This document shows positions 1,174 through 22,845 of a stretch of DNA of 64,000 bases, piece after piece (the first letter of the stretch is position 1; each line of letters opens with the position of its first letter). The translations under genes were made by a program, and so were the position numbers. The notes beneath the pieces are model-generated. The model was given only the letters and a program-made list of their open reading frames with translations, ran no database searches and had not been told where the DNA came from. This DNA is from a virus. Taxonomy: Duplodnaviria > Heunggongvirae > Uroviricota > Caudoviricetes. The DNA is taken from the IMG/VR virus record IMGVR_UViG_642973540_000001; one strand, given 5' to 3'.

Positions 1174-1202
1174 TTGACAGGTCTGAAACAAGCTGGTAAA
1201 TT
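1174..1202 (+). promoter_or_regulatory. sigma70-like promoter TTGACAGG-N17-TAAATT
   Basis: one of five near-identical TTGACAG(G) promoters in the tRNA array. Confidence 0.45.
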
Positions 1203-1246
1203 GGTATCTGTTCTGAGAGAGCTTCAGAGGTTTCACAGAAATCTGT

Positions 1247-1319
1247 GCGGGTGTGGTGTAAACGGGGAACATACATGGTTTTGCCCATGTGGATGAGGGT
1301 TCGAGTCCCTTCACCTGCT
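1247..1319 (+). tRNA. tRNA-like gene with non-canonical anticodon arm (6-bp stem ACATGG/CCATGT, 6-nt loop TTTTGC; TTG triplet)
   Basis: acceptor GCGGGTG/CACCTGC, T-arm GAGGG-TTCGAGT-CCCTT, CCA encoded; anticodon loop not 7 nt. Confidence 0.5.
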
Positions 1320-1408
1320 GCTCTGAAGGTAGCCTGATGAAAATCAGGAGCAAATAACACGAGGCGACAGAACGCGCCTACTCTCAGAAAAATAAGTTGA
1401 AAAACTTG

Positions 1409-1437
1409 TTGACAGATAGAAAGAAGCGAGTTATGAT
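1409..1437 (+). promoter_or_regulatory. sigma70-like promoter TTGACA-N17-TATGAT
   Basis: consensus hexamers. Confidence 0.5.
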
Positions 1438-1460
1438 AGCTTCATAGTTTTAGAAAACAT

Positions 1461-1535
1461 CTCCGTTTAGCTCAGTATGGATAGAGTAGGCCGTTTGGGG
1501 CGGTCGGGTCGAAGGTTCGAATCCTTCAACGGAGA
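1461..1535 (+). tRNA. tRNA-Pro (TGG)
   Basis: acceptor CTCCGTT/AACGGAG, anticodon loop TTTGGGG, T-loop TTCGAAT, CCA encoded. Confidence 0.8.
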
Positions 1536-1545
1536 CCAAATTTAT

Positions 1546-1617
1546 GTCGTAGAAGGCAAATGGTTAGCCACCTGACCTTCAATCAGTTGCTCGCGGGTTC
1601 GAATCCCGTCTACGACT
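1546..1617 (+). tRNA. tRNA-Glu (TTC) probable; C at position 33
   Basis: acceptor GTCGTAG/CTACGAC, loop CCTTCAA, T-arm GCGGG-TTCGAAT-CCCGT, CCA encoded. Confidence 0.6.
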
Positions 1618-1629
1618 CCAAAATAAAGT

Positions 1630-1658
1630 TTGACAGGTACTTTGAATTCTGTCAGTAT
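1630..1658 (+). promoter_or_regulatory. sigma70-like promoter TTGACAGG-N17-CAGTAT
   Basis: -35 consensus, weaker -10. Confidence 0.4.
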
Positions 1659-1732
1659 GGGTCAGTAGCTTAATTGGGAAAGCATCTCACTTGCAATGAG
1701 AAGGATGAGGGTTCAAGTCCCTCCTGTATCCA
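1659..1732 (+). tRNA. tRNA-Ala (TGC) with imperfect acceptor/T-arm junction
   Basis: anticodon arm TCTCA-CTTGCAA-TGAGA, D-stem GCTT/AAGC, T-arm GAGGG-TTCAAGT-CCCTC, G3-U70 possible, ACCA 3' end; two acceptor mismatches. Confidence 0.55.
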
Positions 1733-1913
1733 CCAAAACTTTAATGGTCTGGTCAAATTCTCCCTTAGAATCTTGACTGATAAACTCTCTGTAAGGATTC
1801 GCGGTTGCTTGCAGAGCTTTGGGATAGCATCTTCTAAGTCACGTGCTGAAGAATGCGAAATTGGAATGACCTTGCCGAAACGGTTAGTTTGTCCAGAGCC
1901 ATTAAAGTTTTAT

Positions 1914-1985
1914 AGCGGGATGGAGCAGTGGTAGCTTGCCAGTTTCATTATCTGGAGGTCGTAGGTTCGAATCCTACTCCCGCTT
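1914..1985 (+). tRNA. tRNA with CAT anticodon (Met or Ile-lysidine)
   Basis: acceptor AGCGGGA/TCCCGCT, loop TTCATTA, T-T at 31-39, T-arm GTAGG-TTCGAAT-CCTAC. Confidence 0.7.
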
Positions 1986-1996
1986 CCAAATTTAAA

Positions 1997-2069
1997 GGGT
2001 TTGAAGCACATATGGATGTGCGGCTGGCTGTTAACCAGATGGTAGTGGGTTCGAGTCCCACCTTTCCCG
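1997..2069 (+). tRNA. tRNA-Asn (GTT) with three T-T mismatches in acceptor stem
   Basis: acceptor GGGTTTG/CTTTCCC, D-stem GCAC/GTGC, loop CTGTTAA, T-arm GTGGG-TTCGAGT-CCCAC, CCA encoded. Confidence 0.6.
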
Positions 2070-2078
2070 CCAATTTAT

Positions 2079-2158
2079 GCGTCTATGGCAGAGATGGTCA
2101 ATGCAGCGGTCTGTAAAACCGCCCCGAAAGGTTACTGGTTCGAGTCCAGTTAGGCGCA
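2079..2158 (+). tRNA. tRNA-Tyr (GTA), type II
   Basis: acceptor GCGTCTA/TAGGCGC, anticodon arm GCGGT-CTGTAAA-ACCGC, long variable arm, CCA encoded. Confidence 0.85.
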
Positions 2159-2167
2159 CCAAACAAT

Positions 2168-2238
2168 TGCGAAGTAGTGAAATGGCATCATACTGGTTTC
2201 ATTATCCGGTGTAGGTAGTTCGAATCTACCCTTCGCAT
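2168..2238 (+). tRNA. tRNA with CAT anticodon (Met or Ile-lysidine)
   Basis: perfect acceptor TGCGAAG/CTTCGCA, loop TTCATTA, T-arm GGTAG-TTCGAAT-CTACC. Confidence 0.75.
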
Positions 2239-2320
2239 CCAAATTACTCAGTTTGGGTTGTTCTGAGTGACGTGTAGGGTATTACCCTTTAGAGCGTCGA
2301 ATCAAAGACTCCTTAAAGTT

Positions 2321-2394
2321 GGGGATGTGGCAGACTTGGTAATTGTACCGCACTGTCTATGCGGAATATGAGGGTTCAAATCCCTTCATCCTCG
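2321..2394 (+). tRNA. tRNA-Asp (GTC)
   Basis: acceptor GGGGATG/CATCCTC, anticodon arm CCGCA-CTGTCTA-TGCGG, T-loop TTCAAAT. Confidence 0.75.
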
Positions 2395-2624
2395 CCAATT
2401 TCACCGGAAAGACTTAAAGTCCAACTGGTAACTGCCGTCTGGTATATGCGGTGATTCTACTTTGTAGCGTTCCTCTTATGAGGTGAATGGATGTCTCCTT
2501 TCCAAAGCACATTTAGATGAAATATACAGGTCTACAGCTTTTACTTAAACGTTTCACCTCCTTGCGTTTAAGGTTTGGGCTACATAACTGAGTAGTCTCG
2601 CTCAGGGCGACAGAGAGACAAAAT

Positions 2625-2712
2625 GGAAGGGCAAATCGACTGGCGACGAAAACGGTCTTGAAAACCGCCGAGCGTTAATAGCGCCTTGAGGGTTCGACTC
2701 CCTCTCCTTCCG
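2625..2712 (+). tRNA. tRNA-Ser (TGA), type II
   Basis: acceptor GGAAGGG/TCCTTCC, loop CTTGAAA, long variable arm, T-arm GAGGG-TTCGACT-CCCTC, GCCA end. Confidence 0.75.
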
Positions 2713-2716
2713 CCAC

Positions 2717-2788
2717 GGTCTAATTAGCTTATATGGTAAAGCAACGGTCTGAAAAGCCGTGGAACAGGGTTCGAATCCCGATAGACCG
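2717..2788 (+). tRNA. tRNA-Phe (GAA)
   Basis: anticodon arm ACGGT-CTGAAAA-GCCGT, acceptor GGTCTAA/ATAGACC, CCA encoded. Confidence 0.75.
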
Positions 2789-2798
2789 CCAAATTCAA

Positions 2799-2871
2799 CG
2801 GTGTGTAACTCAATTGGCAGAGTGGGTGGCTTTTAACCACAGGGTTGCAGGTTCGATGCCTGTCACACCGA
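2799..2871 (+). tRNA. tRNA-Lys (TTT)
   Basis: acceptor CGGTGTG/CACACCG, D-stem ACTC/GAGT, loop CTTTTAA, T-arm GCAGG-TTCGATG-CCTGT. Confidence 0.8.
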
Positions 2872-2881
2872 CCAAACAAAT

Positions 2882-2955
2882 GGACTATTAACTCAACTGG
2901 TCAGAGTACCCGACTCTTAATCGGGAGGTTCAGGGTTCGACTCCCTGATAGTCTA
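2882..2955 (+). tRNA. tRNA-Lys (CTT)
   Basis: acceptor GGACTAT/ATAGTCT, anticodon arm CCCGA-CTCTTAA-TCGGG, T-arm CAGGG-TTCGACT-CCCTG. Confidence 0.75.
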
Positions 2956-2969
2956 CCAAATTTCTTAGT

Positions 2970-3042
2970 AGTGGTATGGCAGAGATGGTCATGCACTTCC
3001 TTCATACGGAAGATTACATCGGTTCAAGTCCGATTACCACTT
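2970..3042 (+). tRNA. tRNA with CAT anticodon (Met or Ile-lysidine); CCA not encoded
   Basis: perfect acceptor AGTGGTA/TACCACT, arm CTTCC-TTCATAC-GGAAG, T-arm ATCGG-TTCAAGT-CCGAT, 3' end followed by TCTA. Confidence 0.75.
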
Positions 3043-3056
3043 CTAAGAGATTTAAT

Positions 3057-3128
3057 TGTGGGTTAGCATAAATGGTAATGCAGACGGCTGATAACCGTCA
3101 GAAGAGGGTTCGATACCCTCACCTACGA
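3057..3128 (+). tRNA. tRNA-Ile (GAT)
   Basis: anticodon arm GACGG-CTGATAA-CCGTC, T-arm GAGGG-TTCGATA-CCCTC, CCA encoded. Confidence 0.8.
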
Positions 3129-3138
3129 CCAAACAATC

Positions 3139-3210
3139 GGGGTATGGAGTAATTGGCAACTCTACGGTTTTTGAGGCCGTCAGTTTTCGGTTCGAATCCG
3201 AATGCCCCCG
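3139..3210 (+). tRNA. tRNA-Gln (TTG)
   Basis: acceptor GGGGTAT vs ATGCCCC(C), loop TTTTGAG, T-loop TTCGAAT; one-nt irregularity at 3' acceptor. Confidence 0.7.
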
Positions 3211-3219
3211 CCAAAAAAT

Positions 3220-3293
3220 GCACCCTTAGAACAACTGGACAGTTCCGCTGTCTTCTAAACAGCTAGTTACAGGTTCGAGTCCTGTAGGGTGTG
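3220..3293 (+). tRNA. tRNA-Arg (TCT)
   Basis: acceptor GCACCCT/AGGGTGT, arm GCTGT-CTTCTAA-ACAGC, T-arm ACAGG-TTCGAGT-CCTGT. Confidence 0.8.
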
Positions 3294-3380
3294 CCAAAAA
3301 TGGGTGATTCTGCAACGGTGGAGCTAGGCCAGCTTTGAAGCCGTAAAATGGGAATGTGGTATCGACTTACGATAGTTGTT

Positions 3381-3465
3381 GAAAGTGATTTGTGAAGCCG
3401 GACTAACAGATTATGAGTAAATGGCGACAATACGTTGTAGAGAGGTTCGAATCCTTAATCACTCG
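3381..3465 (+). tRNA. tRNA-like element: canonical T-arm + acceptor 3' strand + CCA, but no recognisable anticodon arm; matching 5' acceptor strand GGGTGAT lies about 160 nt upstream (3302)
   Basis: AGAGG-TTCGAAT-CCTTA-ATCACTC-G-CCA at 3441-3468; 5' partner GGGTGAT at 3302-3308. Confidence 0.35.
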
Positions 3466-3476
3466 CCAAATTTAGG

Positions 3477-3505
3477 TTGACAGGTGAAACAAACTCCTGT
3501 AATCT
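3477..3505 (+). promoter_or_regulatory. sigma70-like promoter TTGACAGG-N17-TAATCT
   Basis: consensus hexamers. Confidence 0.5.
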
Positions 3506-3713
3506 TTACCGTAGTTTTCGTTGAGTATGCTTCTATTTTTATCATTTAAAATAAATGCAAATGATGCTCAATTTCTGGCAGTGGCGTAATAGCTAAACAC
3601 CAGTAGGGTCTTCCGACTCCCTATCACCGAATTCGGCGTAGAGTTGTCCCGTCTATGATTGCCAAACGGGGCTTCAACCTAAAAGGTTCTTACGAGAGTC
3701 TTTCAGATTGAAT

Positions 3714-3787
3714 GGCGTAATATCCCAATTGGCAGAGGAAGCAGGTTCAAACCCTGTTCAGTGTGGGTTCGACTCCCACTTACGCTA
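3714..3787 (+). tRNA. tRNA with CAA (Leu) anticodon but type-I (short variable loop) architecture
   Basis: acceptor GGCGTAA/TTACGCT, arm GCAGG-TTCAAAC-CCTGT, 5-nt variable loop, T-arm GTGGG-TTCGACT-CCCAC. Confidence 0.6.
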
Positions 3788-3919
3788 CCAGATTCAGATG
3801 TCTTTGTAATCGTCCCTGAAATGACGGGGCAATTAAGGAGGTGGTCTGTATCTCCTGACTGTCAGGATAACCAGTAGAGCGTTAACAACACTGAGAAGTG
3901 TGGTAACTCGCTTGATAAT

Positions 3920-3992
3920 GCAAGTATGATGTCAACTGGTAACATGGCGTCCTTCCAAGTCGCTCTTACGGGTTCGAATCCCGTTACTTGCT
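3920..3992 (+). tRNA. tRNA-Gly (TCC)
   Basis: perfect acceptor GCAAGTA/TACTTGC, D-stem ATGT/ACAT, loop CTTCCAA, T-arm ACGGG-TTCGAAT-CCCGT. Confidence 0.8.
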
Positions 3993-4001
3993 CCAAACAA
4001 T

Positions 4002-4074
4002 AGGGGATTAGTTTAACTGGCAAAATGTCGGCCTCCAAAACCGCACGTTGAGGGTTCGAATCCCTCATCCCCTG
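4002..4074 (+). tRNA. tRNA-Trp (CCA); weak anticodon stem; CCA not encoded
   Basis: perfect acceptor AGGGGAT/ATCCCCT, loop CTCCAAA as in E. coli tRNA-Trp, T-arm GAGGG-TTCGAAT-CCCTC. Confidence 0.7.
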
Positions 4075-4086
4075 TCAATTCAGAAT

Positions 4087-4158
4087 GCCTCCATCATATA
4101 AGGGCTATTATGCCTGTTTTGTAATCAGGTCATCGCGGTTCGAATCCGTGTGGGGGCA
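4087..4158 (+). tRNA. tRNA-Thr (TGT)
   Basis: acceptor GCCTCCA/TGGGGGC, loop TTTGTAA with T-T at 31-39, T-arm CGCGG-TTCGAAT-CCGTG. Confidence 0.75.
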
Positions 4159-4168
4159 CCAAAACTAT

Positions 4169-4241
4169 ACTCGTATAGCTCAGATGGTAGAGCGGCATCT
4201 TTACACGTTGCTGGTCAGGCGTTCGAGTCGCCTTGCGAGTA
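4169..4241 (+). tRNA. tRNA-Val (TAC)
   Basis: acceptor ACTCGTA/TGCGAGT, D-arm GCTC-AGATGGTAGA-GCGG, loop TTTACAC, T-arm AGGCG-TTCGAGT-CGCCT. Confidence 0.8.
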
Positions 4242-4250
4242 CCAAACAAT

Positions 4251-4325
4251 GGCTGTGTAGCCCAACTTGGCAGAGGCACTACGCTAAGAACGTATACAGT
4301 GAGAGTTCGAATCTCTCCACAGCTA
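4251..4325 (+). tRNA. tRNA, anticodon ambiguous (loop CTAAGAA reads AAG; Leu-like, type-I)
   Basis: acceptor GGCTGTG/CACAGCT, T-arm GAGAG-TTCGAAT-CTCTC, CCA encoded. Confidence 0.55.
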
Positions 4326-4334
4326 CCAAACAAT

Positions 4335-4408
4335 AGCCCTTTATCTTAAATGGATAGAGACTCAAGCTACGAACTTGAGAGGTTTGGGTTCGAATCCCAA
4401 AAGGGCTT
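4335..4408 (+). tRNA. tRNA-Arg (ACG)
   Basis: perfect acceptor AGCCCTT/AAGGGCT, arm TCAAG-CTACGAA-CTTGA, T-arm TTGGG-TTCGAAT-CCCAA. Confidence 0.85.
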
Positions 4409-4413
4409 CCAAT

Positions 4414-4487
4414 AGGATGTTCGTATAGTTGGCCTATTACACCGGACTCTGAATCCGGTTACGATGGTTCGAATCCATCACGTCCTG
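4414..4487 (+). tRNA. tRNA-Gln (CTG)
   Basis: acceptor AGGATGT/ACGTCCT, arm CCGGA-CTCTGAA-TCCGG, T-arm GATGG-TTCGAAT-CCATC. Confidence 0.8.
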
Positions 4488-4496
4488 CCAAACAAT

Positions 4497-4570
4497 AGGT
4501 GATTACCCCAATTGGCAGAGGGTAGGAGCTTAAACCTCCGATGTTGAGAGTTCGAATCTCTCATCACCTA
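4497..4570 (+). tRNA. tRNA with TAA (Leu) anticodon but type-I architecture
   Basis: perfect acceptor AGGTGAT/ATCACCT, arm AGGAG-CTTAAAC-CTCCG, 5-nt variable loop, T-arm GAGAG-TTCGAAT-CTCTC. Confidence 0.65.
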
Positions 4571-4575
4571 CCAAT

Positions 4576-4650
4576 GGAGTTGGTATCATAAATGGATAAT
4601 GACCCTGACTGTGAATCAGGTCTATGCGGGTTCGAATCCCGTCCTTCTCC
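4576..4650 (+). tRNA. tRNA-His (GTG) with G-1 and two T-T mismatches in acceptor stem
   Basis: G-1 + GAGTTGG/CCTTCTC + C73, D-stem TCAT/ATGA, arm CCTGA-CTGTGAA-TCAGG, T-arm GCGGG-TTCGAAT-CCCGT. Confidence 0.8.
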
Positions 4651-4659
4651 CCAAATTCT

Positions 4660-4749
4660 GGAAGATTAACCCTAAAAGGTAAGGGAAGTGTTTGCTAAAC
4701 ACTCAGTAACCGAGAAATCGGCGTACCAGTTCAAGTCTGGTATCTTCCT
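4660..4749 (+). tRNA. tRNA-Ser (GCT), type II
   Basis: perfect acceptor GGAAGAT/ATCTTCC, arm AGTGT-TTGCTAA-ACACT, long variable arm, T-arm ACCAG-TTCAAGT-CTGGT. Confidence 0.85.
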
Positions 4750-4769
4750 CCAATTCGTAAAGGTGTGAA

Positions 4770-5504
4770 ATGGCTGTAACAGACCAAACTAAGCAAATCT
4801 TCAGTTTAATGCAGTCTGGTAAGGCGTTCAAGAATCCTCTGGCAAGTGCTTCATCAGCCCTCTCATCAAATATCAGTTCCGGTACATCTGGAATGAACAC
4901 TTTGAAGAGCAACCTGACGAATCCAAATGCTCAGACAGCTTTACAGAATGCTGGCATTAACACAACGTTACTGACAAGTGGTGCAGGGGCTTTAACCTCA
5001 TCAGCTTCGACTGTTACAAGTCTGGTCAGTTACGGTCAAACCTCAGTCAATGAGTTCTCTCAGAGAATGCAGTTGGCAGAAGGTTACAAGAGTTCTTATG
5101 AATCTCTTACTGGTACTTCCGCAGGTTGTTCACCTTTCAACTCCGTAATGGGCGTTGTTCAGGGGATTGGACAGTCAGCGATGAATGCTTACAACACGGT
5201 GATGTCAAGTGTCAACTCTGCAATCTCCGCACTTAACGATGCTATTGCAAAAGGTCTTTCGACTATTCAGAACTTGGCAGCAGCAGCTTACGCGAAGATT
5301 AACGAGCTTATCACAAAAGCCAAAGAGTTTGCACAGAAGGTTGTCGATATGATTGCTGAAGAAGCAAGTCTGATTTCAGATTACCTGAAGACGCAAGCAA
5401 GTGCTTTTATGGCAAAGTACATGCCTGATTGGTTTAAAGACTCTTGTAAGAGTTCGGTCACAAATAATGTGGCAACTGATGAGTTGAAAGCAGCAGCGAA
5501 ATAA
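4770..5504 (+). CDS. hypothetical Ser/Thr/Ala-rich protein (244 aa)
   Basis: ORF track; AAAGGTG SD; first gene of structural operon. Confidence 0.6.
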   Translation: MAVTDQTKQIFSLMQSGKAFKNPLASASSALSSNISSGTSGMNTLKSNLTNPNAQTALQNAGINTTLLTSGAGALTSSASTVTSLVSYGQTSVNEFSQRMQLAEGYKSSYESLTGTSAGCSPFNSVMGVVQGIGQSAMNAYNTVMSSVNSAISALNDAIAKGLSTIQNLAAAAYAKINELITKAKEFAQKVVDMIAEEASLISDYLKTQASAFMAKYMPDWFKDSCKSSVTNNVATDELKAAAK

Positions 5505-5713
5505 TGGTGCGATGACTGAAACACAAATGGTGACCGTCTGCAAAACGGTAAAATGAGGGTGGGATTCCCTCTCGCATCTCCAATAAGTCCTCTTGAGAGT
5601 CAGGGTATCGCTACCTCTTGGCTCTTGGGAGGCAGCTTTCGAGTCATACTTAAAGTGTCTTTCCGAAGAGTTTTTGAGTATGTTTCGGCATACAGGCAGT
5701 TGCGGTTTCCTTT

Positions 5714-5738
5714 GTGGCGCTGGTCGCCACCTTTTTCC
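5714..5738 (+). terminator. rho-independent terminator-like hairpin GTGGCG-ctggt-CGCCAC + CTTTTTCC
   Basis: 6-bp GC stem followed by T-rich run. Confidence 0.5.
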
Positions 5739-5774
5739 TGACTGTCGGTAGTATGTACATTTCTCAACTATTTC

Positions 5775-5798
5775 GGAGGCTTTTAGCCTCCTTTTTTG
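5775..5798 (+). terminator. rho-independent terminator GGAGGC-tttta-GCCTCC-TTTTTT
   Basis: perfect stem + T6. Confidence 0.7.
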
Positions 5799-22429: not shown

Positions 22430-22845
22430 TGTCTACAGATTTCAAATTAAATCTCGGTGCTGGCTACATGAGAAAACTCGGTAACGATGTCATTTACATT
22501 GACCACGGAGACCTTGACATTGACGCAAACGGAAATATCAAGATTATTCCAGAGGATGACATTGTTACTCAGGTTGCTCAAAAGATTCACATCAGATGCT
22601 ATCTGAAACGTGGGGAACTCTTCTTCAACCTTGATGCAGGTTTCCCGTACATCCAAATCTCCAAGTATAAAAACTCGAAGTCAATCTTCGATAACTACAT
22701 GGAAGAATATCTTCTTGAAACTGAAGGTGTCGCAAGCATGACATCGTACAGTTCAACCCTTGACAACTTTACCAGACAGATTTCTGTGCAGTTTTCTGCA
22801 ACAACTCTTTCTGGTGAAACAGCAGAAGGTGAGGTTAACATTTAA
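22429..22845 (+). CDS. baseplate wedge protein gpW/gp25-like
   Basis: 138 aa; conserved position and gp25-like sequence character. Confidence 0.6.
   Translation: MSTDFKLNLGAGYMRKLGNDVIYIDHGDLDIDANGNIKIIPEDDIVTQVAQKIHIRCYLKRGELFFNLDAGFPYIQISKYKNSKSIFDNYMEEYLLETEGVASMTSYSSTLDNFTRQISVQFSATTLSGETAEGEVNI

Follow-up and report, generated by a model that had tools for sequence, protein, structure and literature searches.

Can a bacteriophage tRNA still serve translation when the middle of its acceptor stem consists of consecutive U·U oppositions? This question is raised by the genes for tRNA-Asn(GUU) and tRNA-His(GUG) in a 64,000-nucleotide stretch of tailed-phage DNA (Caudoviricetes; IMG/VR record IMGVR_UViG_642973540_000001), which we call the window. 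Positions 1200-5600 of the window matched Erwinia phage phiEa21-4 (NC_011811; Ounavirinae, Kolesnikvirus) at 100% identity. Both genes lie there in an array of approximately 30 tRNA or tRNA-like genes on the + strand (approximately 1247-5582), in which all 20 amino acids are represented. We describe here the anatomy of the two stems, their fixation in the genus, the weak pairs that preceded the mismatches, and the excess and clustering of U·U in phage tRNAs. The expression and charging of the two tRNAs, and the selective regime acting on them, we infer.

Acceptor stems of tRNA-Asn and tRNA-His

The stems were determined in three ways, namely by direct reading of the sequence, with ARAGORN, and with the Rfam tRNA covariance model (RF00005, cmscan). 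All three confirmed what a first-pass annotation of the sequence had claimed, a triple T-T opposition in tRNA-Asn and a double one in tRNA-His. The two genes and their mismatched segments are as follows.

1997..2072, + strand: tRNA-Asn(GUU) with encoded CCA (ARAGORN; RF00005 43.3 bits, canonical register)
2000..2002, + strand: 5' half of the Asn U·U run, positions 4-6 (invariant in eight aligned genomes)
2063..2065, + strand: 3' half of the Asn U·U run, positions 67-69 (5-7 nucleotides upstream of CCA)
4576..4653, + strand: tRNA-His(GUG) with encoded G-1 and CCA (ARAGORN; Rfam 47.6 bits)
4580..4581, + strand: 5' half of the His tandem U·U, positions 4-5 (sequence, ARAGORN, Rfam)
4645..4646, + strand: 3' half of the His tandem U·U, positions 68-69 (sequence, ARAGORN, Rfam)

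In tRNA-Asn, the 5' strand GGGTTTG (1997-2003) faces the 3' strand CTTTCCC (2062-2068), which is followed by G73 (2069) and CCA (2070-2072). The gene had been given as 1997-2069; the start is right, and the end falls on the discriminator base, short of the encoded CCA. The acceptor pairs are G1-C72, G2-C71, G3-C70, U4·U69, U5·U68, U6·U67 and G7-C66, and the T/T oppositions are 2000/2065 (4-69), 2001/2064 (5-68) and 2002/2063 (6-67). tRNA-His begins with G-1 (4576), which faces C73 (4650), and its CCA occupies 4651-4653. Its strands GAGTTGG (4577-4583) and CCTTCTC (4643-4649) form G1-C72, A2-U71, G3-C70, U4·U69, U5·U68, G6-C67 and G7-C66, with T/T oppositions at 4580/4646 (4-69) and 4581/4645 (5-68). 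Instead of seven standard acceptor pairs, tRNA-Asn has four and tRNA-His has five plus G-1:C73.

A Watson-Crick refold, named beforehand as the finding that would speak against the mismatches, did not emerge. The covariance model kept both genes in the standard, canonical register with posterior '*' throughout, matched model positions 1-71 with high posterior probability, and flagged as non-standard exactly the U·U pairs. The scores of the two genes compare with a gathering score of 29 bits and a range of 40.7-68.2 bits over the array. An alternative register or Watson-Crick acceptor fold was ruled out by the covariance alignment, inspection of the flanks and the minimum free energy fold, in which the acceptor helix of tRNA-Asn was retained around a 3x3 U loop. 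Nearest-neighbour stem energies were -9.1 kcal/mol for tRNA-Asn and -11.7 kcal/mol for tRNA-His, compared with -12.8 to -18.5 kcal/mol for the regular stems of the array and approximately -16 kcal/mol for repaired versions. Relative to the latter, the mismatches weaken the Asn stem by approximately 7 kcal/mol and the His stem by 4.5 kcal/mol, and both stems are still favourable.

The rest of each cloverleaf is well formed. The D, anticodon and T stems are paired, the T loop is of the TTCRANT type, and the D-loop GG is present. The claim that every other arm is canonical therefore held nearly, the exceptions being G27·A43 and A8 instead of U8 in tRNA-Asn, both of which occur throughout the phage tRNA-Asn family. 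T·T oppositions reported at 31-39 of the anticodon stem in the genes at 1914, 2168 and 4087 were also correct, and we found T·T at 30-40 additionally in the Gly gene at 3920 and the Val gene at 4169. The tRNA-Asn gene (22572-22647 of the phiEa21-4 record) carries no annotation in the GenBank and RefSeq versions of that genome, and the same is true of 21 of 35 Kolesnikvirus records; it is annotated in 14 sister records.

Descent of the mismatches and U·U in other phage tRNAs

The Asn region was found in all 35 Kolesnikvirus records (approximately 30 isolates from Erwinia, Salmonella, Hafnia and Cronobacter hosts), 18 of which were identical and 17 of which differed by one base. Across eight aligned genomes, both genes kept their U·U positions unchanged and the His acceptor stem was identical in 8/8. 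Only 2 of 76 sites were variable in tRNA-Asn, a T/A in the D loop and C70 (2066), which is T in phage Prophecy and gives G3·U70. tRNA-His had 1 variable site in 78 (seven genomes), and 12.7% of the sites in the adjacent coding sequence were variable. Compensatory double changes occurred in neighbouring tRNAs (Tyr 2-71, Met T stem, Lys 6-67, Ile anticodon stem and Gly T stem), indicating that pairing is under selection in the array.

The sporadic loss among close relatives that marks pseudogenes was not seen in these 35 near-identical copies of tRNA-Asn, and the only decayed-looking copy was that of Ep030 (OQ603357.1, labelled UNVERIFIED). In this record, G-to-T and C-to-A singletons are scattered over all tRNA genes and spacers. 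They look like sequencing damage and not biology; the record is unfit for conservation arguments, and its damaged-looking Asn gene was dropped as evidence of decay.

To follow the stems beyond the genus, the Asn and His families were gathered from viral contigs with their invariant D arms as search patterns. Both sides had changed in 12 of 21 cloverleaf pairs of the Asn family and in 14 of 22 of the His family; none of 500 shuffles matched this covariation, and slid controls collapsed. Comparison at 4-6/67-69, which had been proposed as a check, revealed compensatory changes between Asn lineages at each of 4-69, 5-68 and 6-67, and the sole unpaired sequence was the Kolesnikvirus allele. Of the two nearest Asn outgroup stems, GGGTGAG/CTTGCCC has U·G, G·U and A-U at positions 4-6, and GGGTTAG/CTGGCCC has U·G twice and then A-U. 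The clamp of GGG/CCC with a weak middle is therefore older than the mismatches, and each Asn U·U is one substitution away from a weak pair. Pattern searches of metagenomes for intermediate or reverted Asn stems yielded none, and the two matches were both of the known outgroup types. In the His family U69 is conserved. Of ten distinct sequences, five have G·U at 4-69 and two have A-U; T5 has G-C there, and SUSP1 and Kolesnikvirus share U·U. The acceptor stem of T5 tRNA-His is fully Watson-Crick.

Uncompensated changes over several arms, as expected of a pseudogene, were likewise absent from both genes: the only non-standard pairs fall at acceptor positions 4-6 and, in tRNA-Asn, at the family-wide 27-43. 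The T stem is 100% paired, both across the family and in the phiEa21-4 allele. That the genes are not degraded pseudogenes, as the first-pass annotation held, is thus borne out indirectly, by the intact other stems, T loop, CCA and identity elements, the array context and the invariant U·U. Among the 18 distinct sequences of the phage tRNA-Asn family (alignment A3), all have G27·A43, and A8 replaces the near-universal U8 throughout. The Felix O1, Moogle and Susp types have G7·A66. Further, every member has G1-C72, whereas E. coli tRNA-Asn has U1-A72. In tRNA-Gln, which shares U1-A72 and G73 with tRNA-Asn, a G1-C72 variant is inefficiently cleaved by CdiA-CT EC869 (PMC9071432). This toxin cuts tRNA-Asn at 71-72 and depends on weak U1-A72 and G73, not on positions 4-6, and it was set aside as having no bearing on the U·U run.

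Kolesnikvirus tRNA-His encodes G-1, unlike most of its Felix O1- and T5-like relatives. In alignment A8, G-1 is not encoded in 8 of 10 distinct tRNA-His sequences, in which C73 faces T or A at -1. The sequences that lack it are those of T5-like and Felix O1-like phages, SUSP1, Sf14 and Wc4, and those that encode it are from Kolesnikvirus and contig L092. The tRNA-His loci of this comparison include the following, among others.

L004:8730-8806: tRNA-His
L005:7610-7686: tRNA-His
L002:7790-7865: tRNA-His
L090 (T5): tRNA-His

We placed these stems in a wider context with an ARAGORN survey of 141 sequence records, which yielded 1586 tRNAs (645 of them unique in sequence) with 393 distinct acceptor haplotypes, counts that are not phylogenetically independent and are to be read as effect sizes only. 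Mismatches at acceptor positions 2-7 were rare, occupying 2.5% of haplotype cells (58/2,358) and 2.0% over the 645 unique sequences. U·U accounted for 37 of the 78 acceptor mismatches in unique tRNAs (47%), compared with the 7-9% that single substitutions of standard pairs would give under a uniform or A+T-biased model. At the haplotype level, 25 cells were U·U and 33 held other mismatches, and the same U·U excess was observed in T stems and anticodon stems. Mismatches were also clustered: among the 393 haplotypes, 11 adjacent mismatch pairs were observed versus 1.2 expected, a number attained in 0 of 5000 shuffles. The only real run of three mismatches in the survey was that of phiEa21-4 tRNA-Asn.

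The most telling case outside Kolesnikvirus is a tandem U·U in tRNA-Trp, found with ARAGORN at two loci.

L087:7373-7449: tRNA-Trp with tandem U·U
L026:5289-5363: tRNA-Trp with tandem U·U

The acceptor strands are ATTCCTA/TAGGTTT in T5-like phages and ATTGGCG/CGCCTTT in the 116-kb contig L026. U2·U71 and U3·U70, next to A1-U72, have been kept while positions 4-7 covary completely, and we conclude that U·U persists in phage acceptor stems on which selection for pairing demonstrably acts. A 221-nucleotide region around the L087 gene had matches in 439 phage records.

A third irregular acceptor helix occurs in the phiEa21-4 array itself.

1659..1735, + strand: tRNA-Ala(UGC) (ARAGORN; 0/77 variable sites in eight genomes)

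Its seven pairs, including G3·U70, form only when U1727 is bulged from the 3' strand; otherwise, ARAGORN gives two mismatches. The orthologues in SUSP1 and mistaenkt have U5·U68/U6·U67, that of Sf14 has U6·U67, and that of Wc4 has C6·U67/U7·U66; in these other genera, the oppositions at 5-7 thus replace the bulge. G3·U70 and A73 are always retained, and the phiEa21-4 copy also has CCA. U6·U67 of tRNA-Ala is common to Felix O1-like phages and contigs of T5-like size.

Felix O1-like (Ounavirinae) and T5-like (Demerecviridae) phages have tRNA arrays of the same kind as phiEa21-4, with orthologous Asn and His genes that share the invariant D arms. They too have acceptor U·U, in the form of Ala U6·U67, the SUSP1 Ala tandem, SUSP1 His U4·U69 and the T5-like Trp tandem. 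However, only Kolesnikvirus has a triple U·U in tRNA-Asn or a tandem at 4-69 and 5-68 in tRNA-His. Low-scoring or 'pseudo' tRNA calls have been noted in Felix O1, where tRNA-Asn reached a Cove score of 38.7 (PMC3185647). That phages encode tRNAs with non-canonical stems is already known, and the triple U·U is an extreme case of a tendency spread more widely among large virulent phages. No publication that we found on phiEa21-4, Kolesnikvirus, Felix O1 or T5 describes this U·U feature, and as far as we found, the U·U excess, the clustering of mismatches and the covariation-proof Trp tandem are apparently undescribed before. The idea that the two acceptor helices were deliberately weakened gained no support from these comparisons, because the nearest relatives were already weakly paired there (U·G, G·U or A-U), one substitution short of each U·U, and U·U is the mismatch that generally survives in phage tRNA stems.

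Explanations for the mismatched stems

On balance, we lean towards the reading that both genes encode working tRNAs, in which U·U oppositions produced by A+T-biased drift are tolerated under purifying selection. Both genes would be transcribed within the polycistronic array and then processed. In a genome such as this one (the window has 44% G+C), A+T-biased mutation would keep converting weak pairs in the middle of the helix (U·G, G·U or A-U) to U·U. As the tRNA would be used for less than one hour and made from strong promoters, some loss of helix stability could be tolerated by selection, which would purge those mismatches that distort the A-form helix or touch identity elements. U·U fits within an A-form helix. 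The survivors would be mostly U·U, lying between G-C clamps at 1-3 and 6/7 and away from 73, 1-72 and the anticodon. Further, a first U·U would make a neighbouring one cheap, so that runs may accumulate.

The identity elements are consistent with this reading. The published sets are the anticodon and G73 for tRNA-Asn and G-1:C73 and the anticodon for tRNA-His (PMC9976931). All are intact here (GUU and G73; GUG and G-1:C73), the U·U oppositions are outside both sets, and the top three acceptor pairs of both tRNAs are standard (G-C or A-U). Both are most probably charged by the host asparaginyl- and histidyl-tRNA synthetases. A+T-rich animal mitochondrial tRNAs provide a parallel, since they likewise belong to an A+T-biased genome and have stem U·U that is tolerated in tRNAs still in use; acceptor U·U mismatches are commonplace among them, as many mitogenome papers report. 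However, mitochondrial tRNAs have dedicated, co-evolved synthetases and have often lost whole arms, in contrast to the phage tRNA-Asn and tRNA-His, which have a full bacterial-type cloverleaf and must suit host cytoplasmic enzymes.

Several observations weigh against tolerance. No other tRNA in the survey has a triple U·U, so that tRNA-Asn may lie past the tolerated limit, and the lack of independence among the survey counts limits what their excess can carry. The sole acceptor substitution within the genus weakens the Asn stem further (Prophecy G3·U70, -6.6 kcal/mol), and the Prophecy tRNA-His carries an uncompensated change in the T stem. The noncoding spacer 1736-1913 is as invariant as the tRNA genes (1/178 sites variable), and the region has evolved in part through the exchange of whole-gene alleles. 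Within-genus conservation is therefore weak evidence of function, and we abandoned it as proof. The swaps were identified by comparing window 2321-2397, 4087-4161, 3220-3296 and 1461-1620 with Kolesnikvirus genomes L008-L013. Although these genomes are otherwise 95-99% identical, 36-71% of sites differ between alleles of Asp, Thr and Arg-TCT, and in Prophecy also of Pro and Glu.

A last point of this kind concerns quality control. In 2011, Wilusz et al. reportedly found that GG-initiated tRNAs with unstable acceptor stems are tagged with CCACCA and decay, and tRNA-Asn and tRNA-His both start with GG. The resemblance extends to the mismatch-destabilised acceptor stem and the GG 5' end. However, the substrates of this tagging are defective tRNAs bound for decay, whereas the two phage tRNAs are fixed in their lineage with every other functional feature intact. 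In E. coli, CCACCA tags were detected (PMC5824355).

A less probable account, to which we nevertheless allow a real minority chance, is that one or both genes, Asn especially, are dead for decoding and are kept as RNase P sites that free the Met, Tyr, Leu and Ser tRNAs beside them. The spacers are only 8 and 6 nucleotides on either side of tRNA-Asn, 2 nucleotides ahead of G-1 of tRNA-His and 6 nucleotides past tRNA-His, so cleavage at these genes would set the ends of their neighbours. Within the array, only one stem is weaker than that of tRNA-Asn and only two covariance scores are lower, and the gene was passed over by the tRNAscan-based annotation of the RefSeq record. The further weakening change in Prophecy fits such a role, as does the fact that the hosts have their own tRNA-Asn and tRNA-His. 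On the other hand, a processing spacer has no need of the intact anticodon loop, anticodon stem, G73 and G-1:C73 that are retained here, and no uncompensated change has accumulated in the other arms despite divergence from relatives at many paired positions. The array, moreover, spans all 20 amino acids only when tRNA-Asn and tRNA-His are counted.

Rather improbable, in our estimate, is that the U·U runs were selected because they remove the double-stranded, C-rich 3' acceptor target of host nucleases (such as the TOPRIM domain of Eco2) or of other readers of the acceptor helix. Evasion of nucleases had been suggested in the first-pass annotation, and it has a precedent in retron Eco2, which nicks double-stranded acceptor stems in C-rich sequence 6-7 nucleotides upstream of CCA and whose substrates include E. 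coli tRNA-His and the fully Watson-Crick T5 tRNA-His (PMC12916289). The U·U oppositions at 67-69 in tRNA-Asn, 68-69 in tRNA-His and 67-68 in SUSP1 tRNA-Ala coincide with the nick site, and the persistence of the T5-like tRNA-Trp tandem through covariation suggests retention. However, the Trp tandem is at 70-71 and not 67-68, tRNA-Asn and tRNA-Ala are not among the reported Eco2 substrates, and only 2-3 of the approximately 30 tRNAs in the array are affected. Further, evasion of Eco2 predicts that paired C is purged at 3' positions 66-69 of phage tRNAs, and no such purge was seen across the 393 acceptor haplotypes. Wobble pairs were mostly 5'U·3'G at 4-69 (35 vs 13) and 6-67 (37 vs 4), a direction opposite to the removal of C from the 3' strand. 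Erwinia is not known to have such a nuclease, although no search for one was made.

Phage tRNAs do escape anticodon nucleases through sequence change (PMC11555353). In the pairs T5 tRNA-Tyr and retron Eco7, and phage tRNA-Lys and PrrC or PARIS, the phage tRNA is a copy of a host tRNA that differs where the nuclease acts (PMC11555353; PMC12916289), as may be the case here. In contrast to the present stems, the known escapes concern nucleases of the anticodon loop, anticodon stem or D loop, or operate by overexpression, and no resistance through acceptor-stem mismatches has been reported. Were the U·U runs protective, tRNA-Asn and tRNA-His (and Ala and Trp in relatives) would stay usable under a host defence that nicks acceptor stems, and tandem U·U in acceptor stems would mark counter-defence generally across the tRNA arrays of large virulent phages, as a signature that has so far gone unrecognised.

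A change of identity, in which the weakened helix shifts the charging synthetase or makes the tRNA a substrate of a phage enzyme, is very improbable. Acceptor-stem pairs are identity elements in some systems, for example G3·U70 in tRNA-Ala, and nothing more direct speaks for it here; the altered synthetase discrimination proposed earlier is unlikely, because positions 4-6/67-69 fall outside the published Asn and His sets, both of which are intact, and the top three pairs are standard. Finally, a sequencing or assembly error in the phiEa21-4 record, of the kind that the singleton-rich relative Ep030 brings to mind, is refuted by an Asn region that is identical or one base off in 35 records from many laboratories and by the identity of the His acceptor stem across the aligned genomes.

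The surrounding array and what the two genes mean

The array that holds the two genes was delimited by gene calls and by promoter- and terminator-like elements.

1174..5791, + strand: tRNA array holding the Asn and His genes
1174-1202 and 1409-1437, + strand: sigma-70-like promoters, upstream part of the array
5775-5791, + strand: terminator-like hairpin, end of the array

Several other members of the array are irregular. The tRNA-like gene at 1247-1319 has a six-base anticodon loop (TTTTGC), for which ARAGORN prints a two-base 'anticodon'; it scored 50.2 bits with Rfam, is labelled 'tRNA-OTHER' in RefSeq and varies at 6/73 sites within the genus. tRNA-Glu(UUC) at 1546-1620 was not called by ARAGORN and scored 53.7 bits with Rfam. 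A tRNA-Cys-like gene at 5506-5582, which starts directly past the stop codon of the coding sequence 4782-5505, has an aberrant T loop (TGGGATT) and scored 41.8 bits.

The element at 3302-3468 has an acceptor-like stem (GGGTGAT/ATCACTC) followed by G and CCA, and a T arm, and encloses an insert of approximately 110 nucleotides. It varies at 16/167 sites in the genus, and its fold z-score is -0.95. We rejected it as an intron-containing tRNA, as ARAGORN made no call even with introns allowed and Rfam gave no match. The spacers 1736-1913 and 3469-3713 (7/245 sites variable) are less variable than many tRNA genes of the array and may encode a small RNA or a peptide. A weak YrlA-like Rfam match was obtained at window 4110-4225 (21 bits, E = 0.65).

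HNH endonuclease genes are inserted into the tRNA arrays of Prophecy and Ep030. In Suspvirus and Mooglevirus, a 1.4-kb gene lies directly upstream of the tRNA array (L003:2513-3928, L004:2509-3924 and L005:2504-3919). It is labelled 'RNA-binding protein' in SUSP1 and Sf14 (DUF2828 according to the Sf14 note) and 'hypothetical protein' in mistaenkt, and the phiEa21-4 array has no counterpart at that place.

One consequence of these results concerns annotation, as the tRNA-Asn gene is absent from RefSeq and from many sister records. If tRNA-Asn and tRNA-His are charged and used, three U·U oppositions in a row within an acceptor helix are acceptable to a bacterial translation system. The two genes would then be a natural data point of use to tRNA engineering, and they would help to define the limits of recognition by RNase P, synthetases, EF-Tu and quality control.

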